Made by a program: the position numbers and the translations under genes
IMG/VR virus record: IMGVR_UViG_3300001598_002233
Span: 1-64,000 of that record
Strand: one strand, 5' to 3'
From: a virus
Lineage: Duplodnaviria > Caudoviricetes
DNA length: 64,000 nucleotides
The notes under the pieces: model-generated
Told to the model about the DNA's origin: nothing
What the model saw: only the letters and a program-made list of their open reading frames with translations
Databases searched by the model: none
Shown: in pieces, positions 24,578 through 38,299 of the stretch
How the letters are laid out: the number at the start of each line of letters is the position of its first letter
How positions within the stretch are numbered: position 1 is the first letter of the stretch

Positions 24578-25077
24578 TTAGATATGTTAAAGAAGATACA
24601 ACAGTAGCATTTGCTGAAATCCCTAATGAGACCAGCCTTTGTCTTAACATCTCAAATTGCCAAAATTCTTGTGTTGGATGTCACAGTCCGTATTTAAAGA
24701 AAAATATTGGGGAATATCTTGATTATGCTGAACTTGATAAGTTGGCTAAGGAAAATGAGGGTATTACTTGTATTTGCTTAATGGGAGAAGGTAATGACTT
24801 TTGCGATATTATCCATTACGGTGCTTATATTCACAATATCTTAGGCCTAAAGTCGGCTGTTTATTCAGGAAGGGAAGATATTCCCGAAGCAGCATATTGG
24901 GATGTATTCGATTATATCAAAATTGGCCCATATAAGGCCGAATTTGGGCCCTTAAACTCAAAGACAACCAACCAACGCCTATACCATCATAATGGCGAGA
25001 AAGAGGCTGAAATTGAGATTAATGGGGTAAAGCATCAGGGATGGACTGATATAACTCACAAGTTTTGGGAAAAATGA
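24574..25077 (+). CDS. nrdG: Anaerobic RNR activating enzyme (radical SAM)
   Basis: CQNSCVGCHS CxxxCxxC motif, DYIKIGPY, TTNQRLY; ATGA overlap with nrdD. Confidence 0.93.
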   Translation: MIRYVKEDTTVAFAEIPNETSLCLNISNCQNSCVGCHSPYLKKNIGEYLDYAELDKLAKENEGITCICLMGEGNDFCDIIHYGAYIHNILGLKSAVYSGREDIPEAAYWDVFDYIKIGPYKAEFGPLNSKTTNQRLYHHNGEKEAEIEINGVKHQGWTDITHKFWEK

Positions 25078-25859
25078 GAAAACTCATAATAACAGAGGGC
25101 CAAGCAAAAGAGATACTTGGAGGGCGATTTTTAAGGGAAAGTAAGAGTGTGCTTGATATTTTTAATGTTAAGAGAACACCGTTATTGGAGGCTTATTATG
25201 CTACTTATCCCATAAAAAAGGTGGTGGAATACTTAACGAAACATTTTTACCTAAGTCAAGATTATCAAAATTTTTTGAATAATAGTGAAAAATATCAAGG
25301 GTTTATAACTATTACAGAGATGGAAAGTGGGGAAGAAAGTATTAGTTTAGTATTTCCTAACGGGGAATATCCTTTAAAAAAATTGGGTGAAGCGATGTCG
25401 TTATGTGGCTATTATGAAAGTGATAGAAAAAAGATAGGTGAAATTGGTGGGGTAGAGTATGTGAATATAAATTTTGAAAAACGCCATCAAGATAATGTTT
25501 CTGAAAAGATTAAGGGAGAGTATAAGTATCTTTATCATATAACTTTGAAAGAAAAAGAAGATAAGATAAGAAGAATAGGCTTGGTTCCAAAGGCGTATAA
25601 TAAGCGAAGTAATCATCCAGAAAGAGTTTATTTAATACCAAGTAATAGCCCAATACCGTATTTAATGTTTCATTTTTATCAAGTAGGAAAAATGCTTTAT
25701 CCTGATAAAAACAGTTTTATTGTTTGTGGCATTGAGACTAAAGATTTGGATTGTGAATTTCATTTTGACCCCAATATGGAAAGTGCAGTATATATAACTG
25801 AAAATATCTCGCCACAAATATTGCACATAAAAGATATAATTGTTAAAAACCAAGCATAA
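25074..25859 (+). CDS. ADP-ribosyltransferase-fold (Tpt1/KptA/DarT-like) domain protein with N-terminal leader
   Basis: C-terminal YLYHIT...IRRIGLVPK...RVYL...FDPNM..AVYITENI pattern; ATGA overlap with nrdG stop. Confidence 0.55.
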   Translation: MRKLIITEGQAKEILGGRFLRESKSVLDIFNVKRTPLLEAYYATYPIKKVVEYLTKHFYLSQDYQNFLNNSEKYQGFITITEMESGEESISLVFPNGEYPLKKLGEAMSLCGYYESDRKKIGEIGGVEYVNINFEKRHQDNVSEKIKGEYKYLYHITLKEKEDKIRRIGLVPKAYNKRSNHPERVYLIPSNSPIPYLMFHFYQVGKMLYPDKNSFIVCGIETKDLDCEFHFDPNMESAVYITENISPQILHIKDIIVKNQA

Positions 25860-25871
25860 TGCTTGGTTTTT
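25845..25871 (+). terminator. Terminator (possibly bidirectional)
   Basis: aaaaaccaagca-taa-tgcttggttttt perfect inverted repeat. Confidence 0.8.
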
Positions 25872-25895
25872 TGTTGCCTATTTCAAATATTTTTG

Positions 25896-25903
25896 CTATT
25901 TAT
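25896..25903 (+). promoter_or_regulatory. CTATTTAT motif (candidate late promoter) in front of glycosylation cluster
   Basis: Same motif precedes baseplate and other virion genes. Confidence 0.5.
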
Positions 25904-25922: not shown

Positions 25923-28900
25923 ATGACAAGTAAATACGAAAAATATATTCCATTAATTAAGGAAGTCTGTAAAAAGAAGGGATTTGATATTGACCTCGAA
26001 CACCCAACAACTATTCAGGATAAACTAAACTGGTATAATATCTACGATTATCCTTCAAGGAAAACCAATTGCACTGATAAATATTTATTGCATAAACATT
26101 CCGAGACAAAACTTGGAAAGGATTTTTGTATTCCAATGTATAAGGTATATAAGAATGTGCTTGAAATTGATTGGAAATCACTCCCTAATAAGTTTGTGAT
26201 AAGGTGCAATCATGGTAGTGGAATGCATATTGTTGTCAGAGATAAAAGCAAGGCTGATATTTCGGGTATAATGGCTCAGTTAAATAAGTGGATGGAGGAA
26301 GATTATACTTTCAGAAATAATTTCGAGTTCTGTTATCACGAGATAGAGCATAGAATTATGGTTGAGGAACTTCTTGAAGACCCTTCACAGCCAAAGTTAT
26401 TGCAGACATTCAGATTTTGGTGCTTCAATGGTAAGGTAAAGTTTATGTCAGTACAAGAGGGTGAGTTCGGCCCTATCAACCATTATGATGCTGATGAAAA
26501 TTTTATGAAATGGTTATCAAGAACTGATTATCCTAGCCAATACAAGTCTGATTATTTTATTCCGTATAATTATGATGCAATGAAACTTTATGCAAGGAGA
26601 CTTGCAGAGGACTTTGAATTTGCTTGTGTTGACTTTTACGAGGTTAATGGAAAACCATATCTAAAGAAGATGTGTTTCACGCCTAACGCCAATTATTTTC
26701 TATACAAAGAGGTGGAATCTAATTTTAAGGTTGGGAAAATGTTAACTTTGGGGATAAAGGGGGAGAATGAACACCAAGGAACATATAAGATGTTTGAAAC
26801 ATTGCTTCCAAAGCCACAGGTGAAGCCAATAGCAGCAGAAAAGTCCGTGGAAGTAAAGCCAAAAGTGGAGCAAAAGCCAGTTAATAGTCAACCACAACCG
26901 AAGGTTAATACCCAAAAGGTAGAAGCATTAATTGAGAAGAAGGTAAAAGAAATACTTCAAAAGAAAGTAAAAGAGGACGAGGCTAAAAAAGTGGTTAAGC
27001 CTGTTGGCAGACAAGTATATTACGGAAGTAATTTATTAAGCGGAGGCATTAGTAGCCCTTCAGATAATATAATACCAAAAGCATATCCTAAAAAGACGAC
27101 ATTTTTAGGTTCTAACGATGAATATTCTGTTTCTGATTCAGAGAAAATTATAGAGCAGAAGGGTAGTATGGAAAAGCCAGAAACTTCTCTTAAAATATCG
27201 TTATCTTCCATTTTTAAAGACGATGCACAAGCAATTGATTATCTAAAAACTGAGGTGTTGAAGGATAAAAGTATTTTCTGGGAGGTAAATAATGCTATTG
27301 AGGAAAATCGCAGAATGAACCTTATCAAGAGAGAAAGTGTGGAGAAGGTTATTTCTGATTATGTTTGGAAAAGCACAAACAGCATACTGAGTGAAGATAT
27401 TGCCACGGAAGATGGTAGATTTATCCCACAAAAGTTTGAACAGCCTAAAAATATCATAGCAAGTGAAAATGTGGTATATGAGACCAATTTAACAACATAC
27501 CAAAATAGTTTCAATCTTAATGGTATAAAGAAAGAGGTACCCATGGAGGTTGAAGTTGAGGAGGTAGAGGAGGAAAAGGAATTTTTCATTGCCGAGGGAA
27601 ATAGTGAAACTATTAATCTTTGTATAATTCACTATAACACACCGAAATTGACAGAATGTCTTATTAGGAGTATAAACAAATTCACACCCAATTGTGTTAT
27701 ATATATATTTGATAATAGTGATAAGGAGCCATTTACCTATAGGCAGGATAATATAATTTATTTGGATAATACAAAGGGACAATATATTGATTTTGAAAAA
27801 TGGTTACAGAAATATCCAAATAGGAAAAGGTCCCCAGAAGCGACGCATCAATTTGGTAGTGCAAAACATTGTGTAAGCGTGGAGAAGTGTATGGAATTGA
27901 TTGACAAGAATTTCATATTACTCGACTCAGATATTCTATTGAAGAAAGATATTTCCGTATTTAATGATAATAAATATATATTCGTTGGAACAACAGAAAA
28001 ACAGCCATTTGTAGGAATCAGTAGGGTACTTCCGTTTGTGTGTTTCATTAATGTTGACGCTTGTAAATTTTATGATGTCCATTATTTTGATGAAAATCGC
28101 ATGCACGGCTTATTCAATAATGCAATTATTGCAAATGCAGACCATTATGATACTGGCGCAGCGTTCTTATATCACGCAAAGCCTTACCCACATAAAGAAA
28201 TTGACTATAGGGGCTATATAGAGCATTTTAAGGGTGGCAGTTGGGAAAATATTTCTTCAAGACGAGGCAATCGAACAATGTCATCGAAAGATTGGCTTGC
28301 TAAATTCAAAAACTTATGGGACGACACCAAGCCATTCCGTAAAGTTGTTTATACTTGCATTACTGGTGGATACGAGAGTCTTAAGAAACCAAGTTATGTG
28401 AATGCTGATTTTGACTACATATGTTTTACTGACGCTGATATCAAGAGTGACTTTTGGCAGATAAGACCATTACCAAAGGAAACGGAGGGGTTAAGCAATG
28501 TTAAAAAACAAAGATATGTAAAGATTAATGCACATAAGGTGCTTCCAGAATATGACTTCTCTGTTTGGATTGATGGAAATGTTGACATCAGGGGAAATAT
28601 TAATGAATATATTGCAGCAAACTGTCAACGAAGCAAAGGCGTAATTTCAATAGGAACGCACCCAGAAAGAGATTGCACTTATGAGGAAGCAAAGGCATGT
28701 GTTCATTACAAGAAAGACACAATGGACAATATGGCAGAGCAGATAGATTTCTACAGAAAAGAGGGACTTCCTGAACATTATGGGCTCGTACAGACTTGCA
28801 TTGTGTTTAGATATCATAATGACGAACAATGTGTACAACTAATGGAAGAGTGGTGGAATGAACTATATTCCCATAAGAGTCATAGAGACCAACTTTCAAT

Positions 28901-28997
28901 AAGTTATGTGCAATGGAAAACGGGAATTAGGATAAACAAGTTAGATAAATCAATTTTCAAAAATAAATACTTTTGGTGGGGGGTAACACACAGATGA
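25923..28997 (+). CDS. Multidomain enzyme: TupA-like ATP-grasp + low-complexity linker + GT2-like (GT-A) + DUF616 glycosyltransferase-like, 1024 aa
   Basis: PTTIQDKLNW, CTDKY, LPNKFVIRCNHGSG, RIMVEELL, FACVDFYEV (TupA); LCIIHYNTP...FDNS...LLDSDI (GT-A); VVYTCITGGY...CFTD...KINAH...SVWIDGN...HRDQLS (DUF616). Confidence 0.85.
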   Translation: MTSKYEKYIPLIKEVCKKKGFDIDLEHPTTIQDKLNWYNIYDYPSRKTNCTDKYLLHKHSETKLGKDFCIPMYKVYKNVLEIDWKSLPNKFVIRCNHGSGMHIVVRDKSKADISGIMAQLNKWMEEDYTFRNNFEFCYHEIEHRIMVEELLEDPSQPKLLQTFRFWCFNGKVKFMSVQEGEFGPINHYDADENFMKWLSRTDYPSQYKSDYFIPYNYDAMKLYARRLAEDFEFACVDFYEVNGKPYLKKMCFTPNANYFLYKEVESNFKVGKMLTLGIKGENEHQGTYKMFETLLPKPQVKPIAAEKSVEVKPKVEQKPVNSQPQPKVNTQKVEALIEKKVKEILQKKVKEDEAKKVVKPVGRQVYYGSNLLSGGISSPSDNIIPKAYPKKTTFLGSNDEYSVSDSEKIIEQKGSMEKPETSLKISLSSIFKDDAQAIDYLKTEVLKDKSIFWEVNNAIEENRRMNLIKRESVEKVISDYVWKSTNSILSEDIATEDGRFIPQKFEQPKNIIASENVVYETNLTTYQNSFNLNGIKKEVPMEVEVEEVEEEKEFFIAEGNSETINLCIIHYNTPKLTECLIRSINKFTPNCVIYIFDNSDKEPFTYRQDNIIYLDNTKGQYIDFEKWLQKYPNRKRSPEATHQFGSAKHCVSVEKCMELIDKNFILLDSDILLKKDISVFNDNKYIFVGTTEKQPFVGISRVLPFVCFINVDACKFYDVHYFDENRMHGLFNNAIIANADHYDTGAAFLYHAKPYPHKEIDYRGYIEHFKGGSWENISSRRGNRTMSSKDWLAKFKNLWDDTKPFRKVVYTCITGGYESLKKPSYVNADFDYICFTDADIKSDFWQIRPLPKETEGLSNVKKQRYVKINAHKVLPEYDFSVWIDGNVDIRGNINEYIAANCQRSKGVISIGTHPERDCTYEEAKACVHYKKDTMDNMAEQIDFYRKEGLPEHYGLVQTCIVFRYHNDEQCVQLMEEWWNELYSHKSHRDQLSISYVQWKTGIRINKLDKSIFKNKYFWWGVTHR

Positions 28998-30382
28998 TGA
29001 CAGAGCAACCGATTACAATTCAAGAAAAATTACAATGGCTTAAAGAGAATGATAAGAATCCATTGAAAGAAAAATGTAAGGACCAATTAAAACTAAGAGA
29101 ATGCCTAAAGTCTGTTTTAGGCAAGGACTTTTGTGCACCTGCATTAAAGATTTATAAGTCTTCAGCATATATTGAATGGGATAAACTTCCAAAGAGTTTT
29201 GTTATTAAGTGTAATCTTAATGATAAGAGCATTTTTGTCAAGGATAAAGATTCGGCTAATAGGGGCAAAATTAATAAGGAAGTAGATTCGTGGCTTATTG
29301 ATGAACAACATAAGATTGTAATTGAGAAATATGTTGTGGATAAAAAAGAGTTATTAAAATTTGGACTATGGTATTTTAGCGGGGAATTAAAATTCTATGA
29401 GGTGAAGGAGGGAGATAATGGAAGGTACTGCAATTTTTATGATACTCAAAATAGGTTCTTAAAAAAGTTTTTGGTAAAAGGGTATGTTAATGATGAAATG
29501 ATTCAATTCCAAAGGCCCCCACATTTTGGCTTGATGAAAGAGTATGGAAAAAAACTTTCTAAGCCATTTAAATTTGTTATAATTAATTTTTATGAGGGTA
29601 ATGGGGAACTATTTGTCGATAATTTTTGCTTTGAACCCTATGGCGGGGATTTTTCTTTCGAAAGGCCCGATATAAATCGTTATGTGGGGGATTTTCTCAA
29701 TTTGGACTTAGAATTAAAGAAAAAGGTTATATATACTTGTATTACTGGCGAATATGAAACGCCTTATGTTCAAGAGTGTGAGAAACAGCCCAATTTTGAT
29801 TATATTTGTTTTACAGATTCTAATATTCAGAGTGATTTTTGGGAGATAAGGCCATTGCCAAGAGGACTTGAGGGCCTTAGTAATGTTAAAAAACAGAGAT
29901 GGATAAAGATAAATGCCCACAAGATATTGCCAGAATATGAATTTTCCATTTGGGTTGATGGGAATGTAAAAATGGGAGGTAATATGAATCAGTTCTTATC
30001 TGAAAACATAACGAATAAACCTTATAAGTTTTATGTCGGAACACATCCACAAAGGGACGATGTATATGAGGAAGGAAAGGCTTGCATAGAACTTAAAAAA
30101 GATACCCCCGAAAATATCCACAGACAGTTAGATATTTATAAGAAAGAGGGCCTTCCAAGTCACTATGGAATGGCTCAGACTTGTATGTTATTTAGATGGC
30201 ATAATAATGAAGAATGTATAACATTAATGGAAGCGTGGTGGGACGAGATGGAGAAATACGGTCATAGAGACCAATTATCGTTTCCTTATGCATTATGGAA
30301 AACAGGAATTAAGATTGGATTCTTAGATAAGAAAATATTTAAAAGTGAATATTTTAGAAGAATTCCACATAATAAAAAGTAA
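28994..30382 (+). CDS. TupA-like ATP-grasp + DUF616 fusion protein
   Basis: TIQEKLQWLK, CKDQLKLRE, LPKSFVIKCN, IVIEKY; C-terminal VIYTCITGEY...KINAH...WVDGN...HRDQLSFPYALWK. Confidence 0.8.
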   Translation: MMTEQPITIQEKLQWLKENDKNPLKEKCKDQLKLRECLKSVLGKDFCAPALKIYKSSAYIEWDKLPKSFVIKCNLNDKSIFVKDKDSANRGKINKEVDSWLIDEQHKIVIEKYVVDKKELLKFGLWYFSGELKFYEVKEGDNGRYCNFYDTQNRFLKKFLVKGYVNDEMIQFQRPPHFGLMKEYGKKLSKPFKFVIINFYEGNGELFVDNFCFEPYGGDFSFERPDINRYVGDFLNLDLELKKKVIYTCITGEYETPYVQECEKQPNFDYICFTDSNIQSDFWEIRPLPRGLEGLSNVKKQRWIKINAHKILPEYEFSIWVDGNVKMGGNMNQFLSENITNKPYKFYVGTHPQRDDVYEEGKACIELKKDTPENIHRQLDIYKKEGLPSHYGMAQTCMLFRWHNNEECITLMEAWWDEMEKYGHRDQLSFPYALWKTGIKIGFLDKKIFKSEYFRRIPHNKK

Positions 30383-30394
30383 AAATAGTAAATT

Positions 30395-30877
30395 ATGATT
30401 ACATACACAATAGAAAATGCTCAAAAACAAGGAATGAAAGTTGGAAAAAATGTGGGATTTACAGATACACCCAACTTTGGCTCAGAGCCTTATCTAATAG
30501 AAATTGGGGATAATACAACATTTAGTTTCGAGGTTGCCTTTGTCAATCACGATGCGGCGACACGTGTTATTAGACAACTTCCAGACGGCGACCCGAATAC
30601 AATTATATATGGAAAAATAAAAATAGGTAAAAATTGCTTTATTGGGTGTAGAACTACTTTATTACCAGGAATAGAAATTGGCGACAATGTGGTAATTGGG
30701 GCGGGAAGTGTGGTCAATAAGTCAATTCCTTCAAATTCCATTGCTGCAGGAGTACCTTGTAAGGTAATATGTAGTTTAGACGAATATCGAGAAAAGCATC
30801 AGGATGATTTTTTATATATGGTAAATTTACCATATAATGAAAAAAAGAAATTCTTAACAGAGCATTTTGGTGATTAA
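30395..30877 (+). CDS. Left-handed beta-helix (hexapeptide) O-acyltransferase
   Basis: GSEPYLIEIGDN, KIKIGKNCFIG, LLPGIEIGDNVVIGAGSVV..SIPSNSIAAGVPCKVI. Confidence 0.9.
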   Translation: MITYTIENAQKQGMKVGKNVGFTDTPNFGSEPYLIEIGDNTTFSFEVAFVNHDAATRVIRQLPDGDPNTIIYGKIKIGKNCFIGCRTTLLPGIEIGDNVVIGAGSVVNKSIPSNSIAAGVPCKVICSLDEYREKHQDDFLYMVNLPYNEKKKFLTEHFGD

Positions 30878-30903
30878 TAATAAGAGTTTAAAGTACATAA
30901 AGA

Positions 30904-31758
30904 ATGAAAGATATTAAAGTTGCAATAGGTGCTATTGCTAAATGCGAAAACCTTTATATTCGTGAATGGGTGGAATACCATAAAAATCTTGGTATATATA
31001 AGATATTTTTATACGATAATAACGATATAGACGGGGAACGGTTTGAAGAAGTTATTGACGATTATATTAAAAATGGCTATGTTACTATAGTGGATTATAG
31101 GGGGCGTAAGAATGACCCTAATGGAGATTTACATCATATGCATATAAATCTCCAATCACAAATGTGCAACCATTGTTATAAAATAGTTTCTGAAGAATAT
31201 AAGGAAATTGATTGGCTTGCTATTATTGATATTGATGAATTTATTGCTTTCAGCAATGAATTTAAGAACATAGGTGAATTTTTATCACAGGATATATTCA
31301 AGGATTGCGAATGTGTAAGGCTTAATTGGAAGATGTATGGGGATAGTGGGTATTATAAAGTCGAAAATGGTAATTATTCAGTTGCAAGATTTAAAGAGTG
31401 GAAGATAGATAAATTAGGGAAGTCAATATTTAAAACTGGATTATCGCATTTGTATGGCATAATAGAAGGGCATGGGTCTTATGTTTCTGTAAATTTTGAT
31501 GAAGAGGGAAATAGATTACCGATTTTTAATAATCGTATATCAATTGTTAATCCCAATCCCAAGTATTTACATGCTTGGATTAATCATTACAAATCAAAAA
31601 CAATAGAAGAATTTATAATTAGGCGATGTGTCATTAAAGATTTGGTGCCTTTTATTGAATACAAACCGATTTCATTTTTTTTATACAATGAAAGGACTAA
31701 GGAAAAAGAAGATTGGGCAAAAATTATTTGTAAAAAATATGGAATAAAGTATGAGTAA
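30904..31758 (+). CDS. Glycosyltransferase, GT92/GT2-like (GT-A fold)
   Basis: AIAKCENLYIREWVEYH..LG..IFLYDNN; WLAIIDIDEF DxD; INHYKSKTIEEF. Confidence 0.85.
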   Translation: MKDIKVAIGAIAKCENLYIREWVEYHKNLGIYKIFLYDNNDIDGERFEEVIDDYIKNGYVTIVDYRGRKNDPNGDLHHMHINLQSQMCNHCYKIVSEEYKEIDWLAIIDIDEFIAFSNEFKNIGEFLSQDIFKDCECVRLNWKMYGDSGYYKVENGNYSVARFKEWKIDKLGKSIFKTGLSHLYGIIEGHGSYVSVNFDEEGNRLPIFNNRISIVNPNPKYLHAWINHYKSKTIEEFIIRRCVIKDLVPFIEYKPISFFLYNERTKEKEDWAKIICKKYGIKYE

Positions 31759-32467
31759 ATGTATATATTTTCCGCCTTCTACGGAAGAAGCAAACAAGGA
31801 ATTTATTAAGGATAAAGAAGAATTTTTATCTCGTAATGATTCACTTATATTAGATATGAATAAGTTGCAATTTTATGACAATTGGGAGCATAATGAACTG
31901 CATATTACAACAGAAAGTCATTATACTTATATTTTACCTGAAATGGGAAAATTTCTCGGCTTCAACTATGATATAAATGATTTTGAACTAATAGAGAAAA
32001 AAGATAGGACAGGAAATTTTGATATAAGTTATTTATTCCCTAAAAAGAACAAGAAATTTAAAATAGCCTTTCAAGATAAACAATATATGTGTGGGTATGA
32101 GGGAATGATAGGTTTTAATAATGCAGAAAAGTGCGAAAAAGATTTTTTTGATAATACAAGTTTTAAAGAGATGAACCCAGATTATCATCTTTTGTTTTTT
32201 GCATCACATCAGTGCTGTGTAATAGAAAATTTAGATGAAAATAATGGGAAAACTGTAGTAATTAGTGGGGATTCGCAACTCATACCAGATGTACCAATAT
32301 TAGCATATTATTATAAAAAAATAGTATATTTAGATAAGCGTAGAGCAGATTATGGTTCTGTTTTATTTAATATTTCCAGAAAAGATGAGGTTGTTTATGT
32401 AATGTCTAAATATGACCTTGCTAAGTATACAGACATAAATTCCAAAAAATGTAGATTTATAGATTAA
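31751..32467 (+). CDS. Putative SGNH/DHHW (AlgJ/AlgX-like) O-acetyltransferase or esterase
   Basis: C-terminal KTVVISGDSQLIPDVPILAYYYKKIVYLD resembles the GDS-containing DHHW/AlgX-type segment; weak. Confidence 0.4.
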   Translation: MSKCIYFPPSTEEANKEFIKDKEEFLSRNDSLILDMNKLQFYDNWEHNELHITTESHYTYILPEMGKFLGFNYDINDFELIEKKDRTGNFDISYLFPKKNKKFKIAFQDKQYMCGYEGMIGFNNAEKCEKDFFDNTSFKEMNPDYHLLFFASHQCCVIENLDENNGKTVVISGDSQLIPDVPILAYYYKKIVYLDKRRADYGSVLFNISRKDEVVYVMSKYDLAKYTDINSKKCRFID

Positions 32468-32470
32468 ATT

Positions 32471-33151
32471 ATGAATAAGAATGTTTTTTATACTTGTATA
32501 ACGGGAAAATATGAAATTCCATTTGAGAACAAATGTCAAAAATTACCAGACTTTGATTATATTTGCTTCGCTGACACTGATATCAAAAGTAATTTTTGGG
32601 AGATAAGGCCGATGCCTAAGACACCAGAAGGCTTAAGTGATGTTAAAAAACAAAGATGGGTAAAGATAAATGCTCATAAGGTGTTACCAGAATATGAATT
32701 TTCAGTATGGGTTGATGGTAATATATTTATGGGAGGTGATATGTCAGCATTTTTAAAAAATACAGTATTTAACTTTCCTTATAGTTTTTTTGTTGGGAAA
32801 CATCCAGAAAGAAATTGCGTTTATGAAGAAGCAAAGGCATGTATTAATCTAAAGAAGGACATAAAGGAGAATATAAACCCACAAATGGAGGCATATAAAA
32901 AGGAAGGGCTCCCTGCTCATTTTGCCTTAGCACAAACTTGTATGCTATTCAGATATCACAATAGGGAGGATTGTATTAAATTAATGGAAACTTGGTGGGC
33001 TGAAATGGAAAAATATGGCTATAGAGACCAATTATCGTTCCCATATGCTGTGTGGAAAAATCCAGATGTTAAAATTGGGTGGATGGATAAACGTATTTTT
33101 TGTAGTGCATTTTTTAGGAGAATACCACATAATAAACAGAAGAAATCTTGA
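32471..33151 (+). CDS. Stand-alone DUF616 glycosyltransferase-like protein
   Basis: VFYTCITGKY, CFAD, KINAHKVLPEYEFSVWVDGN, YRDQLSFPYAVWK; clear paralog of the two fused DUF616 domains. Confidence 0.85.
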   Translation: MNKNVFYTCITGKYEIPFENKCQKLPDFDYICFADTDIKSNFWEIRPMPKTPEGLSDVKKQRWVKINAHKVLPEYEFSVWVDGNIFMGGDMSAFLKNTVFNFPYSFFVGKHPERNCVYEEAKACINLKKDIKENINPQMEAYKKEGLPAHFALAQTCMLFRYHNREDCIKLMETWWAEMEKYGYRDQLSFPYAVWKNPDVKIGWMDKRIFCSAFFRRIPHNKQKKS

Positions 33152-33978
33152 CATTTTGCCTTATATTTCTTATTTTTAAAGAAAAAGTATTGGCAAAGAA
33201 GATTATCATATTATGTATGTCCTGCAATATTGAGCGATTCAGAAACGAAGAGCAGGTAATAAAGGAAACATGGGGTAAACCTATTATAGAGGGGGACCCT
33301 GATGTTTCTATTTATTTTTATAGGGGTGGGTGCAATATGAATGTGGTAAATGACAAAACACATGAAATACTTTTAAGTTGTGGTGATGGCTTAGATAATA
33401 CATTTGAAAAAACGATAAAGGCTTTTCTTGGCATAAACAGAAAAGATTATGATTATGTTATCAGAACTAATACAACCACATATCTAAATATTCCATTATT
33501 AAAGCAAGTAATAGAACAATTAGATAATACGGCACAATTTTATGGGGGAAGACTGGTCAGTAATAGGAAGAGTGAGTATGTGCCTTTCTTTAGGGGGTGC
33601 TTTATGATGTTTCCGAAGTCATTAGTCACAGAATTGTTGGAAGTGGTTCCCAAGTATGGGGTGAAAGGTGTTGATGATATTGACATAGCGAAAATACTCT
33701 GCAACGAAAGAAGAAAAGATGGAAATCTTAAAGAGTATATAGAATTATTGAGGGAGGCACCAGGAATAGAGAAGATAAGCGAAACTGATTTCTTAGAGAA
33801 GGTAAAAACTGCATATTATATTAGAGCGAAGGAAAATAAAACTGGCGAAAACCATGTGGCTATTTTTAAGGTGCTTCACGAACTATTATCAGGATTAAAT
33901 TGTGAATATGAGGTTACAATGCCACATAAAGTTACAAAGGTAGAAACAATAAAAGGAATAATTAATTTGAATATATGA
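33148..33978 (+). CDS. Putative GT31/galactosyltransferase-like glycosyltransferase
   Basis: IIILCMSC...IKETWG...TFEKTIKAF...YDYVIRTN..TYLN...GVDDIDI; true start may be TTG 33190. Confidence 0.6.
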   Translation: MTFCLIFLIFKEKVLAKKIIILCMSCNIERFRNEEQVIKETWGKPIIEGDPDVSIYFYRGGCNMNVVNDKTHEILLSCGDGLDNTFEKTIKAFLGINRKDYDYVIRTNTTTYLNIPLLKQVIEQLDNTAQFYGGRLVSNRKSEYVPFFRGCFMMFPKSLVTELLEVVPKYGVKGVDDIDIAKILCNERRKDGNLKEYIELLREAPGIEKISETDFLEKVKTAYYIRAKENKTGENHVAIFKVLHELLSGLNCEYEVTMPHKVTKVETIKGIINLNI

Positions 33979-35651
33979 CAACATTATTGTGCTGCATAGG
34001 CAGAAAAGAGAACAGATACATACGAGAGTATGTTGAGTGGTATAAGCATTTAGGGTTTACAAACATTGTTATTTATGACAATAATTATGATGGGGAAGAC
34101 AATTTCCGTGACGTAATTGGTGATTATATTGATAGTGGATTTGTAATTATAAAAGATTACAGAAATAGAACGATATGTCAACACGAGGCATATAACGAGT
34201 GTTATAGAGAACACGGAGATAGTTACGATTGGATTGCCTTCTTTGATTGTGATGAGTTCTTGACATTGCCCAGAAAGAAAGATATAAACACGTTTTTGTC
34301 TTCAATATTGTTTAGGAAGTATGATATGATTCATGTGAATTGGATGAGTTACGGTGATAGTGAAAATATCTATTATGAGGACAAGCCACTTACGGAGAGA
34401 TTTCCTAGTCCAGTAAAGCCATATGACTTTAAGAAGACCTATAATTTCCCAGACAACAATCATATTAAGAGTATTGTTAGGGGTGGATTAAAAACTGTGT
34501 TGTTTGGTAATAGAGGGTGGTCCCATACACCGAGTGGAGTTGCTACTTGCTGCACAGCAAAGGGAATTGCTTGTGACCCCAATTCACCCTTCACACCGTT
34601 TGACTTTACAGAAGCATATTTAAGACATTATGTAACAAAGAGTACGGAAGAATATGTAGATAAACTTCGTAGGGGTTTTCCTGACCAAGAATTCAATCCT
34701 GAAAGATTTAAATATCTTGTGGAACTCTATTTCAAGATAAATACAAAGACACAGGAAAAGATGGATTATTTCAATGAAAAACTTGGAATGAATTATGCAG
34801 CCAAGAGAGATGATGTACAGATATTTACATTGTGCTACGATAAGAAAGATTATGAGTTTATGGAGGATTCCGTGATTACTCCCCTTCAGTGTGGTGCTGC
34901 AAATGGTAAGGATGTGTGTAAGGTAAAGGATAATACGGGGGATAATATTTCTGGCCAGAACTATGTTTATATTGAAAATACTGGCGTTTATTGGATTTGG
35001 AAGAATGTGAAGAACGCTAAGTATAAGGGAAATATGCAGTATAGGAGACTTCTTGAGGGTGTTAATGAGAACATGAACTTTAATGAAGTATTTAAGAATT
35101 ATGATGTAATTACTTGTGTACCATTTAATCACCCAGAACATAAAATACCAAAGTTCCAAGGAGATGCAATTATTCCTGCTGACACGGTAAGAGAAGGTTA
35201 TACTTTTAGTAATTGTGGTGCTGATTTGGATATTATGGAAAAGGTTGTTAAGGAACTATATCCTGATTATGCAGAATCGTGGGATAAATACATTAATAAT
35301 GGTGAGAACCTTTATTATTCTTGTGGATATGTTCTTAGGGCTGAGGATTATGACCGATATGCTGAATTCCTTTTCAGATGTGGTGCGGAGTTTTTGTCAA
35401 GAACGGAGATTAGAGATGAATTCAGTTTATATCTGCATGTTGCAATTGATATGGGCAAGGGGCTCTATCCAAAGATTGCGGGTCATGACCCCCACGATAT
35501 ACTAAAATCTGGTTTTGACTTTTTAAGATGGGAGAAGAGTATTTTAGGATTTTTAGGGGAACGACTATGGACATTATGGGTGCAGCATAACTTCACTCGT
35601 GACAGAATTATGGAAGTCCCATTTAAGAAAGTAGAAAATCAATGGATTTAA
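33975..35651 (+). CDS. Dual glycosyltransferase: GT92/GT2-like + DUF4422 (GT111-like)
   Basis: N: GRKENRYIREYVEWYKHLG..IYDNN, WIAFFDCDEF, HYVTKSTEEY; C: PLQCGA...DNTGDNIS..N....NTGVYWIWKN...QYRR...GFLGERL. Confidence 0.8.
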   Translation: MTTLLCCIGRKENRYIREYVEWYKHLGFTNIVIYDNNYDGEDNFRDVIGDYIDSGFVIIKDYRNRTICQHEAYNECYREHGDSYDWIAFFDCDEFLTLPRKKDINTFLSSILFRKYDMIHVNWMSYGDSENIYYEDKPLTERFPSPVKPYDFKKTYNFPDNNHIKSIVRGGLKTVLFGNRGWSHTPSGVATCCTAKGIACDPNSPFTPFDFTEAYLRHYVTKSTEEYVDKLRRGFPDQEFNPERFKYLVELYFKINTKTQEKMDYFNEKLGMNYAAKRDDVQIFTLCYDKKDYEFMEDSVITPLQCGAANGKDVCKVKDNTGDNISGQNYVYIENTGVYWIWKNVKNAKYKGNMQYRRLLEGVNENMNFNEVFKNYDVITCVPFNHPEHKIPKFQGDAIIPADTVREGYTFSNCGADLDIMEKVVKELYPDYAESWDKYINNGENLYYSCGYVLRAEDYDRYAEFLFRCGAEFLSRTEIRDEFSLYLHVAIDMGKGLYPKIAGHDPHDILKSGFDFLRWEKSILGFLGERLWTLWVQHNFTRDRIMEVPFKKVENQWI

Positions 35652-35655
35652 TATG

Positions 35656-35685
35656 GAAGCGTGGTTTTGCCACGCTTTTTTCTTT
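35656..35685 (+). terminator. Intrinsic terminator closing glycosylation cluster
   Basis: aagcgtgg-ttttg-ccacgctt plus T-run. Confidence 0.8.
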
Positions 35686-35735
35686 CCTTTTTCCGAGAAT
35701 TTTGTTAATTTTAGATAGGAAAAATGTAAGGTAAA

Positions 35736-35744
35736 CTATTTATA
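35736..35744 (+). promoter_or_regulatory. CTATTTATA motif (candidate late promoter) for baseplate wedge operon
   Basis: Recurrent motif upstream of gp25-like gene. Confidence 0.55.
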
Positions 35745-35759
35745 GGAAATATTGTGAAT

Positions 35760-36137
35760 ATGATACAAAAATTCGGAATAAAATACCCTTTTACCTTGGA
35801 GAACAACGACGAACTATATATGGATGTGAATGATTCATATACAGATATGGTCAAATCTAATGTTCTCCATGTGCTTTTTACACCAAAGGGGCAGAGATTA
35901 ATGAATCCTGATTTCGGGACAGATTTGGTGAGGTTTTTATTTGATGCAAACGATGATATTACATTAGACGACCTTAAATCTTCTCTCAAATCAGATATAT
36001 CAAAATATGTCAGTGGGGTTGAATTTAACGATATCTCCATTTATAATGATGGGGAGAATGGAAGGGTGGTAGTTGTTCATTATACCGTCGTTAGAGGCAA
36101 TAATAAGGAGCAAACAAGCGTTGCTGTAAAAATATAG
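35760..36137 (+). CDS. Baseplate wedge subunit, gp25/GPW-like
   Basis: GIKYPF, VKSNVLHVLFTPKGQRLMNPDFGTDL motif. Confidence 0.9.
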   Translation: MIQKFGIKYPFTLENNDELYMDVNDSYTDMVKSNVLHVLFTPKGQRLMNPDFGTDLVRFLFDANDDITLDDLKSSLKSDISKYVSGVEFNDISIYNDGENGRVVVVHYTVVRGNNKEQTSVAVKI

Positions 36138-36144
36138 TTGAGTT

Positions 36145-38052
36145 ATGTCAGAAAAGAAAATATCTTATTTAAATAGAACCTTTGCAGATTATAAGGAGGC
36201 TTTAATAGACTTTGCAAAGAAGTATTATCCCAATTTAGCAACATCATATGATGATGCGTCAGTTGGGTCATTCATTATTGATATTAACGCTGCAACTGCA
36301 GACGCATTGGGGTATTATGTAGATAGGGCATATCAAGAAACCAATATAGAAAGTGCAAATGAAAGGGCATCACTATATGCATTGGCCAGAAATAACGGTT
36401 TGAAAACACCAGGGCCTAAGGGTGCAATGGCAGAAGTTCAGTTCAGTTGCCAATTACCTAAAAATTCTGATGGTACTGTTGACTTTACCTATGCACCTGT
36501 TGTTAGAAGGGGAACAAAGGTATCAGCTGGCTCTCAAGTATTTGAATTGCTTACAGATGTTGATTTCAGTAAACAATTTAGCGAAGAGGGTACTTCAGAT
36601 AGAACAATTTATCCTATGTTAGATTCTAATGGCGTTATTCAGCAATATAAGGTAACAAAACTTGCTGTTGTTGTTGCTGGCGAATCAAAGGTTTATAAGA
36701 AAGTTGTTTATATGAAAGATGTGGTTCCTTTTATGGAAATACTTCTTCCAGAAAAGAACATTATGAACGTGGAATCCATTATAGTAAAAGATGGAACAAA
36801 CATTGTCTCAACACCTACATATAGTGAATTTTATATGGAAAGTGAAAGTGGGTGTACTGATGCCACAAAAGGCAAGGTGATAAGGTTTTTCGAAGCAGAC
36901 TCATTAGCACAGCAATATAGATGGGGTGATGAGGAAGAGAATGGAAAGGCATTATCAAGTACATATAAAGACAAGAACGGTAATGAGGTATATTACATTA
37001 CAAAGGGAAAGTGGCATCGTCTTGAACACAAGTTTATAACAGAATATACGGATAATGGCTATCTTAAAGTAATATTTGGCTCAGGAACTGACGAAAAAAA
37101 TACTTCGGTATTAGATGGGGCAAGCGCATTTTCAAAATTCCAAATTGAAAGGGTGATAAAGAACGATTCACTTGGTATACTTCCAAATGCAGATACAACA
37201 GTATTTGTATTATACAGAGTAGGTGGGGGCAAATCAAGCAACGTTGCGAAGGGTGCAATCAACTATATAAATTATCTTAATGCTGAAATTCCTGGTGGCA
37301 ATGCTTCAATGAAGAGCCAAGTCGCAAGGTCAATTACCGTTATTAGTACAACGCCTTCTGTTTCTGGTAAGGATATGCCAACAGCTAATGAATTAAGATA
37401 CCTTATTAAGTATAACAATGGCTCACAAGACAGATGTGTTACTGTAAAGGATTACATACATAGGATATTGATGATGCCCTCAAGATATGGCTGTCCTTTT
37501 AGAGTGGGTGTTAGTGAGGAAAATAATAAGATAATGGTCAATTTGTTAGGGCTCAATGCTGATGGACAACTTGACACGGCAATGCCAGCCTTACTTATTC
37601 ATAACATCAGAGAATATCTTGCAAATTATCGTATGATAAATGACTATATTGAGATAAAGCCAGGTAAGATTGTCAATATTTCTTTTGATATTGATGTTTA
37701 TGTGGACAAGAATTACAATAAGTCAGACGTAATTTCTGCTATCATCAATAAGGTTTATGACTATATGGATATTAATGCTCATAATATGGGTGATGATATA
37801 TTTGTTGGTGATATTGAGAAGGAAATTTCAAAGATTGACGGTGTAATTAACCTTATAGATTTACAGGTATGGAACGAGTATGGCAATGGATATTCAGAAA
37901 CAAGAACAACACAGGAAATTGAAAGTACCAATGTTGCTAACAGAAGCAAAATTGACCTCGAAGCGTCTGAGGGCATTCTTTATAGTGATGGAGACACAAT
38001 GTTAGAGATAAAGACACTCCAAGATGTGAGAGTTCGTTGTAAAACTCGTTAA
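36145..38052 (+). CDS. Baseplate wedge protein, T4 gp6 / baseplate J-like
   Basis: YLNRTFADYKEALI, DALGYYVD...QET, YRVGGG..SNV, QDRCVTVKDY. Confidence 0.88.
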   Translation: MSEKKISYLNRTFADYKEALIDFAKKYYPNLATSYDDASVGSFIIDINAATADALGYYVDRAYQETNIESANERASLYALARNNGLKTPGPKGAMAEVQFSCQLPKNSDGTVDFTYAPVVRRGTKVSAGSQVFELLTDVDFSKQFSEEGTSDRTIYPMLDSNGVIQQYKVTKLAVVVAGESKVYKKVVYMKDVVPFMEILLPEKNIMNVESIIVKDGTNIVSTPTYSEFYMESESGCTDATKGKVIRFFEADSLAQQYRWGDEEENGKALSSTYKDKNGNEVYYITKGKWHRLEHKFITEYTDNGYLKVIFGSGTDEKNTSVLDGASAFSKFQIERVIKNDSLGILPNADTTVFVLYRVGGGKSSNVAKGAINYINYLNAEIPGGNASMKSQVARSITVISTTPSVSGKDMPTANELRYLIKYNNGSQDRCVTVKDYIHRILMMPSRYGCPFRVGVSEENNKIMVNLLGLNADGQLDTAMPALLIHNIREYLANYRMINDYIEIKPGKIVNISFDIDVYVDKNYNKSDVISAIINKVYDYMDINAHNMGDDIFVGDIEKEISKIDGVINLIDLQVWNEYGNGYSETRTTQEIESTNVANRSKIDLEASEGILYSDGDTMLEIKTLQDVRVRCKTR

Positions 38053-38056
38053 ATAT

Positions 38057-38299
38057 ATGGCGTGTGCGTGTAAGGTAAATCAGCAGATTGATTATCTGCA
38101 TAAAAAATATGGGACAAAGGTACCTGTAAGTAAAAAAACACAAATTTCTTTCCATATTGGAGAGGCTTTTAAGAAATTGCTTATAGGGATATTAACTCTT
38201 CCTTTAACAATTGTTATGCTTATACATGTTTTGTTTAAAGCATTTTCAAAAAACAAAGTTATAAATATCAACAGATTATTAAGATTGAAACATGTCTGA
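38057..38299 (+). CDS. Small membrane protein, 80 aa (MACAC N-terminus)
   Basis: One hydrophobic helix LLIGILTLPLTIVMLIHVLF; tightly coupled to neighbours. Confidence 0.65.
   Translation: MACACKVNQQIDYLHKKYGTKVPVSKKTQISFHIGEAFKKLLIGILTLPLTIVMLIHVLFKAFSKNKVININRLLRLKHV

Follow-up and report, generated by a model that had tools for sequence, protein, structure and literature searches.

Eight genes (g1 to g8), all transcribed in the same direction and translationally coupled, form an island at positions 25,923–35,651 of the window, the window being the whole 64,000-nucleotide stretch of DNA that was analysed. The contig (86 kb) represents about 23% of the ~350–380-kb genome of a very large, uncultured jumbo phage from the gut or rumen, and the host is likely a gut or rumen Bacteroidota. 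The eight open reading frames proposed in a previous sequence-only reading of this DNA were all present on the + strand, but the starts of two of them needed correcting. The g2 reading frame is open from a TTG at 28973, and its true start is more likely the ATG at 28994, which makes an ATGA overlap with the g1 stop codon; the g7 frame is open from a TTG at 33148, and the ATG at 33217 is the more likely start. The domain count of that reading was identical to ours, with eight glycosyltransferase (GT) domains (in our assignment, three DUF616/TOD1-MUCI70, two GT92-like, one unclassified GT-A, one GT31-like, and one DUF4422/GT111), two TupA-like ATP-grasp domains, one left-handed beta-helix (LbH) acetyltransferase, and one SGNH/AlgX-like protein. 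The terminators that it had placed on both sides of the cluster were also found, each as a hairpin plus a T-run, as were the gp25-like and then gp6-like baseplate genes directly downstream (Table 1). We regard the island as an autonomous transcription unit. Its upstream neighbours are the nucleotide-metabolism genes NrdD and NrdG, and a thymidine kinase is also encoded by the phage.

Table 1. Features of the glycosyltransferase island and of its flanks (positions in the window).
Feature	Position	Strand	Assignment and basis
Hairpin plus T-run (ccaagca-taa-tgcttgg tttttt)	25850..25878	+	Read directly; closes the NrdD/NrdG/264-aa unit and bounds the island on its upstream side
CTATTTAT promoter-like box	25896..25903	+	20 nt before the g1 start
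g1, 1024 aa	25923..28997	+	Pfam, sequence, AF2 and Foldseek
g2, 462 aa	28994..30382	+	TupA-like ATP-grasp fused to DUF616 (Pfam)
g3, 160 aa	30395..30877	+	Left-handed beta-helix (hexapeptide) sugar acetyltransferase; Pfam Hexapep
g4, 284 aa	30904..31758	+	GT92/Glyco_tranf_2_4-like GT-A glycosyltransferase (Pfam)
g5, 238 aa	31751..32467	+	SGNH-hydrolase-like (AlgX/DHHW polysaccharide O-acetyltransferase-like)
g6, 226 aa	32471..33151	+	Stand-alone DUF616/TOD1-MUCI70 domain (Pfam)
g7, 253 aa	33217..33978	+	GT31/Fringe-like glycosyltransferase
g8, 558 aa	33975..35651	+	Fusion of a GT92-like domain (aa 1-270) and DUF4422/GT111 (aa 280-480); Pfam
Intrinsic terminator, 11-bp stem plus T-run	35655..35689	+	Downstream boundary of the island
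AAACTATTTATAG box	35733..35745	+	Before the baseplate operon
gp25-like (127 aa) and gp6-like (635 aa) baseplate wedge genes	35754..38052	+	Conserved downstream neighbours, outside the island

The g1 protein contains, in this order, a TupA-like ATP-grasp domain (aa 1–279), a K/E/V/P-rich linker (280–560), a GT-A domain (565–801), and a DUF616/TOD1-MUCI70 domain (806–1024). The ATP-grasp and DUF616 domains were found by Pfam, and the middle domain was recognized from its AF2 model (pLDDT 92.6), which has a GT-A fold with an LLDSD motif and was matched by Foldseek to LARGE1, LgtC, and SpsA with a probability of 1.0. This GT-A family comprises 436 representative clusters without a Pfam model, and g1 homologues with permuted domains were present in the related loci L014 and L016. 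In both g1 and g2, the TupA-like domain (PF14305; 84 and 37 bits, respectively, for a cut-off of 25 bits) is fused to DUF616 (PF04765), and identity between the two ATP-grasp copies is as low as 32%. Since over 30 protein clusters contain the TupA-DUF616 fusion, and several of these clusters occur on contigs of 260–374 kb, the two domains probably perform coupled chemistry. The third DUF616 domain, g6, shares 66% identity with the copy in g2 and 53% with that in g1, and retains every column that is invariant in a six-sequence alignment (A2).

The nearest types to g3 are WbbJ, NeuD/PglB, and LacA, all under the family cut-offs, and g3 shares 73% identity with a gene of the L016 cassette, which lies in an unrelated genomic context. 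No match to g5 was returned by the Pfam search, its likeness to SGNH/AlgX/DHHW proteins coming only from an Atlas structure and feature search (TM 0.73). The g4 protein is 29% identical to the N-terminal half of g8. The DUF4422/GT111 domain of g8 was detected both with PF14393 (E 3.3e-34) and with the structure of WbbM (PDB 6u4b, E 4.8e-14), and hundreds of protein clusters contain g8 homologues that are 50–59% identical, several on contigs of 300–380 kb.

As previously claimed, no transmembrane helix or signal peptide was found in g1–g8 by a hydropathy scan. The same scan revealed no multi-span membrane protein across the whole 86-kb contig, nor among the 75 ORFs of 14 island versions, i.e., this island and 13 related loci. 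Among these 75 ORFs, Pfam matches to priming transferases, flippases, polymerases, and ABC transporters were likewise absent. An initiating phosphoglycosyltransferase (Bac_transf or Glycos_transf_4) was detected neither in g1–g8 by Pfam and NCBIfam nor among the called genes of L014, L016, L018–L021, and L006/L007, and the cluster contains no nucleotide-sugar synthesis gene. The sequence-only description of a cluster devoid of flippase, Wzy, priming, and nucleotide-sugar genes is therefore correct and, for the lipid-carrier and export genes, extends to the 13 other versions. Flippase, polymerase, priming, ligase, and ABC-transporter genes are near-universal in bacterial surface-polysaccharide loci, and the island, without initiating transferase, flippase, polymerase, or ABC transporter, does not have the composition of a Wzx/Wzy- or ABC-transporter-dependent locus. 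Many bacterial GTs acting on undecaprenyl-linked acceptors are soluble too, a point against a virion target.

In each of the 13 related loci, g8 lay zero or one gene upstream of the gp25-like baseplate gene. It is ~52% identical across the relatives, whose baseplate proteins are 55–62% identical, and to judge from these sequences its inheritance follows that of the phage core. Within the island, g8 constitutes the conserved core, the other genes being swapped in relatives for other GTs, UDP-glucose dehydrogenase, or epimerases; UDP-glucose 6-dehydrogenase (Ugd) genes were present in the relatives' islands, and some relatives carried an epimerase or RmlA. Several paralogous GTs and a content that varies between related large phages are also features of the "LPS" clusters of jumbo phages and cyanophages. 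The proximity of the baseplate genes had been pointed out in proposing a virion role. The adjacency was observed in every locus, but synteny covers the whole RecA-DnaB-RNR-island-gp25 region, and thus it says little by itself.

The CTATTTAT box was indeed found upstream of g1, but it is not specific to virion operons, as it also heads NrdD (22360) in addition to the baseplate operon (35736), and its enrichment as an 8-mer is slight (13 matches versus 7.8 expected). A box similar to AAACTATTTATAG was located 23–30 nt 5′ of the gp25-like gene in the eight relatives examined (8/8), and the island version, CTATTTATTTAAAA, resembles that of NrdD more than the AAACTATTTATAG of the baseplate operon. 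The argument for late or virion co-regulation from a common box thus fails.

Our preferred, still tentative, reading is that the island encodes a soluble cytoplasmic assembly line that may build an acetylated glycan containing amidated uronic acids on proteins of the phage particle. The set of domains, the total lack of membrane and export genes, the vertical conservation of g8, the swapping of accessory genes, and the lack of a known route to a glycosylatable DNA base all point in this direction. A cytoplasmic virion-glycan pathway had already been put forward; the soluble enzymes, the missing export genes, and the reduced likelihood of a DNA target are in its favor, but its promoter argument is lost and no acceptor protein was found in the 86-kb contig, about 23% of the genome, in which capsid and tail-tube genes were not seen. 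The acceptors would most likely be proteins of the baseplate or fibres, or surface proteins of the head or tail whose genes lie in the other three-quarters of the genome. One striking Ser/Thr-rich protein (34% S+T, with a BACON domain; contig positions 67724–70468), the sole candidate of this kind, is not conserved in G001, a 93%-complete relative.

From the domain identities described above, we infer the substrates and the acceptor of the following scheme. The bifunctional and lineage-conserved g8 would lay down the invariant part of the glycan with its GT92-like and GT111/DUF4422 domains, maybe a galactofuranose-containing two-sugar repeat as made by WbbM. The DUF616 domains of g1, g2, and g6 would add uronic acid residues, whose C6 carboxylate would be amidated by the TupA-like domains of g1 and g2, possibly with different amines, given how far these two copies have diverged. 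Further sugars may be added by the GT-A domain of g1, g4, and g7, and acetyl groups by g3 and g5, the nucleotide sugars being supplied by the host in this phage. As all genes but g8 are swapped between related phages, the product would consist of a lineage-conserved core with a strain-variable decoration.

Two enzymes serve as models for this scheme. Klebsiella WbbM, an O2a galactan synthase (GT111 + GT8; PDB 6u4b; PMC12269835), likewise combines GT111 and a second GT-A domain in one soluble chain, but in g8 the partner is GT92-like instead of GT8 and the domain order is reversed. Polymerisation and the use of Galf are putative for g8; a Glf gene was absent from the contig and from G001. Campylobacter jejuni Cj1438, a GT2 fused to a TupA-like glucuronamide synthase, also belongs to a glycan pathway, and its TupA-like domain (Cj1438C) amidates glucuronate (GlcA) (PMC11800379); in g1 and g2 the fusion partner is DUF616 (plus the novel GT-A domain in g1) and the domain order differs. 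The amidation of uronic acids at C6 is inferred by analogy with Cj1438C and with plant GT116 MUCI70, a rhamnogalacturonan galacturonosyltransferase (GalA transferase) and the only characterised relative of DUF616 (bioRxiv 10.64898/2026.09.18.752628), together with the Ugd genes of the relatives.

The assembly of a glycan on virion proteins by soluble viral enzymes has been observed in other viruses. Virion glycosylation by virus-encoded soluble GTs has precedents in chloroviruses and mimiviruses, and in giant viruses (chlorovirus PBCV-1, Mimivirus fibrils) complex glycans are assembled on virion proteins in the cytoplasm without host membrane machinery. Multi-domain soluble GTs and clade-specific gene clusters are common to these viruses and to the island, but giant viruses infect eukaryotes, use unrelated enzyme families, and have chemically characterised glycans, whereas the glycan of the island is predicted. 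In mycobacteriophages, glycosylation systems comprise about 2–4 genes and modify Ser/Thr-rich tails; the island, by comparison, has its eight GT domains together with amidoligases and acetyltransferases. The mycobacteriophage systems (Che8, Corndog, Myrna; cited in PMC12619734 and PMC11256854) also consist of soluble GTs without export genes, and PMC12619734 describes the glycans at the C-termini of capsid and tail-tube subunits. Decoration of capsid or tail in the cytoplasm by phage-encoded soluble GTs, proposed here for the island, is given there as proven for mycobacteriophages (Freeman et al. 2023, as cited in PMC12619734).

The main rival, which is possible but doubtful, is a remodelling of host surface polysaccharides. 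The soluble GTs would bind the host membrane from its cytoplasmic side and lengthen or redecorate the host's undecaprenyl-linked intermediates of capsule or O-antigen, which the host would export; the altered cell surface would then block superinfection or keep progeny from re-adsorbing to debris. The characterised relatives of the island enzymes all act in surface or wall polysaccharide synthesis, mostly on lipid-linked molecules: WbbM/GT111 (PMC12269835), Cj1438C (PMC11800379), WbbJ/NeuD-type acetyltransferases, AlgX-like SGNH proteins, and plant MUCI70 on pectin (bioRxiv 10.64898/2026.09.18.752628). Peripheral binding to the membrane could also be mediated by K-rich segments, found in the linker of g1 and in the tails of g1 homologues. 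Both observations weigh against a virion target, as do the strong terminators that insulate the island from the baseplate operon, the promoter box in common with NrdD, and the published interpretation, as Iyer et al. 2021 regarded polymorphic jumbo-phage GT clusters as modifying the host capsule or O-antigen (PMC7824862), and cyanophage papers give the same host-surface interpretation (PMC12801897). The clusters of cyanomyoviruses and jumbo phages (P-SSM2, S-SCSM1, S-SCSM2R; PMC7824862, PMC12801897), whose function is predicted as is that of the island, resemble it in their many paralogous GTs, their large lytic phages, their polymorphic gene content, and the presence of NDP-sugar enzymes in some versions. 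The island differs by its DUF616+TupA and GT92-GT111 fusions, its unclassified GT-A domain, one lineage-conserved fused enzyme at a fixed site before gp25, a likely gut/rumen Bacteroidota host, and a window without sugar-synthesis genes. Gene-content variation between relatives would suit diversifying selection on a cell-surface antigen equally well, but no priming transferase, flippase, polymerase, ligase, or ABC transporter was found in the 75 ORFs of the 14 versions, the product would have to suit a host export machinery outside phage control, and the surroundings of the island showed neither an integrase nor a lysogeny context. Moreover, the conservation of g8 at ~52% identity across a diverse large-phage lineage implies a constant acceptor, and a phage protein is thus easier to picture than the variable capsules of different hosts.

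Soluble enzymes and missing export genes would also suit a different cytoplasmic acceptor, which we consider unlikely: non-structural phage or host proteins, a small molecule, or a free oligo- or polysaccharide acting, for example, as a decoy, osmolyte, or assembly scaffold. The island is transcriptionally independent with a promoter box like that of the NrdD operon, the homologous L016 cassette lies away from structural genes, and there is a published link between a TupA-like ATP-grasp enzyme and the modification of a protein, FimA (PMC13419641). However, a pathway of eight GT domains with acetylation and amidation resembles those of surface-exposed antigens, and the strain-level swapping of accessory genes suggests selection from outside. 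We also know of no precedent for a free cytoplasmic heteroglycan made by a phage.

Finally, an oligosaccharide built by the island GTs on a modified base of phage DNA, allowing restriction evasion, is very improbable: hypermodification with several GTs occurs in phages (Pyle et al. 2024, as cited in PMC12619734), NrdD and NrdG precede the island, which has their promoter box, and DUF616 genes adjoin DNA methylases in Cellulophaga phages and in L016, but eight GT domains with amidoligases and acetyltransferases far exceed any described DNA glycan, and the phage, having a thymidine kinase, would make normal dTMP. The sole thymidylate-synthase-family gene of the contig and of G001 encodes a canonical bifunctional DHFR-TS, TET/JBP dioxygenase (PF12851) and C5 DNA methylase (PF00145) genes were absent from the contig (23% of the genome) and from G001 (93% complete), and no hydroxymethylase was found in G001. 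The enzyme for a hydroxymethylated base on which T-even- or TET-type DNA glycosylation depends (a dCMP or dUMP hydroxymethylase, or a C5-methylase with TET/JBP) is thus lacking from both, which makes glycosylation of the phage genome unlikely on sequence grounds and less plausible than when the sequence-only reading listed it as an alternative.

It is conceivable, though doubtful, that particles of this whole ~350-kb gut/rumen jumbo-phage lineage, probably at their baseplate or fibres, receive a polysaccharide-like glycan made by the phage itself, with an invariant backbone from the conserved WbbM-like two-domain synthase (GT92-GT111) and a strain-specific decoration from a swappable cassette. 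The cassette of this phage would then add amidated uronic acids via fused uronosyltransferase-amidoligase enzymes, a chemistry that, to our knowledge, is undescribed in viruses.

Multi-GT clusters are common in large phages, with the host surface, DNA, and the virion as candidate targets, and the target of such systems has been tested in only a few mycobacteriophages. With one conserved fused enzyme, a fixed site, and a cassette that varies from phage to phage, this lineage provides a clean handle on the question, strengthened by the complete lack of membrane parts and of a known route to a glycosylatable DNA base. For two poorly characterised families, the recurrent DUF616-TupA fusion predicts a biochemistry in which uronosyl transfer precedes amidation, and the middle domain of g1 defines a sizeable GT-A family lacking a Pfam model. 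If virion proteins do serve as acceptors, the jumbo phages of gut and rumen would have glycan coats that vary, with consequences for mucus adherence, immune recognition, and host range. Such a coat would be a bacteriophage counterpart of the Mimivirus fibril glycans, i.e., a virus-encoded serotype.

The site of the island, and one of its genes, are conserved across a lineage of related phages. In all 13 related loci compared (L001-L007, L014, L015 and L018-L021), a homologue of g8, a GT92-like and DUF4422/GT111 fusion, was found directly upstream of the gp25-like baseplate gene or with one gene in between. Identity of the g8 homologues in these loci is about 50-54%, close to the 55-62% seen for the baseplate protein. 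Of 445 homologous clusters with E ≤ 0.001, at least 120 were full-length at 49-59% identity, and several g8 homologue clusters are located on 300-380 kb contigs. These loci were found through the baseplate protein and protein databases; GenBank phages searched by megablast with the island, and IMG/VR by pattern scan with g2, gave no match.

Island content other than g8 differs among the related loci. The L020 island contains only g8 and two small genes, that of L018 a hexapeptide transferase, a DUF616 protein and g8, and those of L014 and L015 g8 and a GT-A+TupA+DUF616 protein, which has the three domains of g1 in a changed order. L006, L007, L019 and L021 carry instead GT2, GT8, GT11-like and additional DUF4422 genes and a GalE/TviC-like SDR, with UDP-glucose 6-dehydrogenase additionally present in L019 and L021. 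On a 364-kb phage contig (L016), a cassette combines RmlA and a GT92 gene with a hexapeptide transferase (73% identical to g3) and with genes for GT-A+TupA+DUF616 and GT-A+DUF616 proteins; its genomic context differs from that of the island, indicating that cassettes move between jumbo phages. No multi-span membrane protein was detected among 75 ORFs in 14 island versions. A hydrophobic 19-mer occurred in only two of these ORFs, one being a small single-pass protein, and the second 19-mer probably lies within an N-terminal extension added by ORF calling, in which this ORF begins 81 nt before its database start.

ORF calls, Pfam, structure matches and terminators bore out both the gene cluster and the domain count of the sequence-only reading. 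The eight ORFs have short or overlapping junctions (8 nt for g4/g5, 4 nt for g7/g8, and an ATGA overlap for g1/g2 if g2 begins at the ATG that is also its database gene-call start), and a hairpin with a T-run was found at each end, in agreement with the proposed terminator boundaries. As had also been claimed, no membrane segment was seen in any of the eight proteins by hydropathy scan; in the long form of the g7 ORF, an N-terminal hydrophobic stretch precedes the likely start.

Coordinates of features of the island, its full contig (G000) and related loci; window positions unless another sequence is named
Feature	Position	Strand	Remark
Island, g1-g8	25923-35651	+	eight ORFs
Upstream terminator	25850-25878		hairpin + T-run
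Downstream terminator	35655-35689		hairpin + T-run
g1 linker	26760-27600		aa 280-560
g1 middle domain	27615-28325		aa 565-801
g2 start	28994		ATG, likely
g7 start	33217		ATG, most likely
(A)ACTATTTAT box	22360, 25896, 35736, 62471, 63157; contig 79171		23-30 nt before start codons
264-aa ORF	25065-25859		co-transcribed with NrdD/NrdG
80-aa membrane protein	38057-38299		single-pass
914-aa protein (P0121)	G000 67724-70468 (L017:4724-7468)	+	outside the window
DHFR-thymidylate synthase fusion	G000 84396-85943 (L012:1489-3036)	-	515 aa, outside the window
Ribonucleotide reductase large subunit	L020:6377-8974		class I/II, in place of NrdD
LAGLIDADG domain	L014:2642-5140		inside DnaB-like helicase

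Pfam identified a TupA-like ATP-grasp domain (E 1e-23) and a TOD1_MUCI70/DUF616 domain (E 1e-17) in g1, the same pair in g2, a hexapeptide transferase in g3, GT92/Glyco_tranf_2_4 in g4, DUF616 in g6, and GT92-like and DUF4422 (E 3e-34) domains in g8. The three DUF616 copies, 53-66% identical in protein and 68-72% in DNA, all keep every invariant column of a six-sequence alignment (A2), and the two ATP-grasp copies share only 32% identity. Three parts were left without a Pfam match, namely the middle domain of g1, g5 and g7. The g7 protein is GT31/Fringe-like (Pfam Galactosyl_T, E 0.067; B3GALT5, E 0.02; Atlas score 0.98, TM 0.82). For g5, AF2 run on the single sequence gave no usable model (pLDDT 32), so the Atlas model (TM 0.73), which resembles SGNH-fold AlgX/DHHW proteins, is the sole basis for the SGNH/AlgX call.

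A PDB sequence search found no solved relative of the TupA domain, the DUF616 domain, or the g1 middle domain and its profile. The latter domain has 436 representative clusters at E ≤ 0.001, occurring stand-alone (~230 aa) or fused, and its AF2 model (pLDDT 92.6, 38-sequence alignment) matched the GT-A enzymes LARGE1, LgtC, SpsA and WrtF by Foldseek (probability 1.0, TM about 0.5). It contains an LLDSD motif, and residues invariant in the family include N13/T14, D38/N39, D109-D111 (LLDSD) and H209 (alignment A1 numbering); as modelled, it is an unclassified GT-A-fold family. Between its ATP-grasp and GT-A domains, g1 has a 280-aa low-complexity K/E/V/S/P-rich linker, missing in the L014 and L016 homologues, which have K-rich C-terminal tails instead; this linker could serve as a tether or for docking to membranes or proteins.

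MUCI70, the founding member of the TOD1/MUCI70 family, is a galacturonosyltransferase (GT116; bioRxiv 10.64898/2026.09.18.752628), and the GT-fused TupA-like domain of Cj1438 converts the C6 carboxylate of glucuronate to an amide (PMC11800379). Since these two independent annotations converge on uronic acid, and Ugd is found in the islands of relatives, we infer that the DUF616-TupA fusion, which recurs in more than 30 protein clusters, would place a uronic acid that is afterwards amidated. Acetyl groups may be supplied by g3 and g5, and further sugars by the remaining GT-A domains. Glf, sought as support for Galf chemistry, was absent from G000 and from G001, a 93%-complete relative.

G000 is an IMG/VR virus record of 86,310 bp whose completeness was estimated by CheckV at 23%, and related sequences occur on 302-374 kb contigs; it is thus a piece of a ~350-380 kb jumbo phage. 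The host is likely a member of the Bacteroidota, as hinted by a BACON domain in one contig protein, by the N-terminal domain of g8, which is 38% identical to Prevotella Lak megaphages, and by partial matches to human faecal phage contigs. The island is preceded by genes for thymidine kinase, a UvsX-like recombinase, an exonuclease, a DnaB-like helicase, NrdD and NrdG, and is followed by gp25-like and gp6-like baseplate genes, then by a run of very large proteins to which PHROGs assigned no function. The 264-aa ORF had no match in Pfam, PHROG or NCBIfam and no positional homologue in relatives. The 80-aa membrane protein, between the gp6-like gene and a ~2000-aa protein, is conserved in relatives at 41-63% identity.

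The sequence-only reading had linked the island to virion operons through a shared sequence motif, an argument that fails because this promoter-like box is common to NrdD. On the contig, seven starts, that of NrdD among them, have CTATTTAT at a distance of 10-30 nt upstream, and the (A)ACTATTTAT box is also present in L006, L007, L014 and L018-L021. The box precedes NrdD in all four contigs checked (the window, L014, L018 and L021) and the gp25-like gene in eight of eight relatives examined; its flanking bases give no clean split into classes, and it was rejected as a mark of late or virion genes. As a 9-mer, it was not enriched (4 matches vs 2.1 expected). The island's variant resembles that of NrdD, and the timing of the island is therefore not fixed by the box, which resembles a general promoter element of phages.

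Our best reading, a tentative one, is that the island glycosylates virion proteins. It agrees with three features: the enzymes are soluble, the site ahead of the baseplate genes is constant, and the decoration varies; a mycobacteriophage precedent is among the work cited in PMC12619734. No acceptor was found, and the capsid and tube genes lie beyond this contig. The 914-aa protein (34% Ser+Thr, internal repeats, BACON domain) is preceded by a 1488-aa protein (22% Ser+Thr) headed by AAACTATTTATAG, and could represent a mucin-like or glycosylated fibre. As a conserved Ser/Thr-rich acceptor it was rejected, G001 having no conserved copy, and it is a lead only.

Remodelling of the host envelope, which is how the literature interprets polymorphic GT clusters of jumbo phages (PMC7824862) and clusters of cyanophages (PMC12801897), is possible but somewhat unlikely: the characterised enzyme relatives all work on polysaccharides, but priming, flipping and export genes are missing in every island version, and conservation of the core enzyme across diverse phages suggests a constant acceptor. 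We consider action on some other cytoplasmic acceptor rather improbable. DNA glycosylation is very improbable, since the sole thymidylate-synthase-family gene in G000 and G001 is a bifunctional DHFR-TS, and TET/JBP and C5 methylase are absent from both. Such a fusion is unusual in a phage; the 515-aa DHFR-TS has its best PDB matches among protist DHFR-TS enzymes (E 1e-81), and an open frame of 503 aa in G001 matches this family.

Large phages with many GTs are already known. Specific to the present island are the GT92-GT111 core, found throughout the lineage at one fixed site with its adjoining swappable cassette, the DUF616-TupA fusions, the unclassified GT-A family and the negative outcome for the DNA route. 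It offers a good system for settling what the multi-GT clusters of large phages act on.
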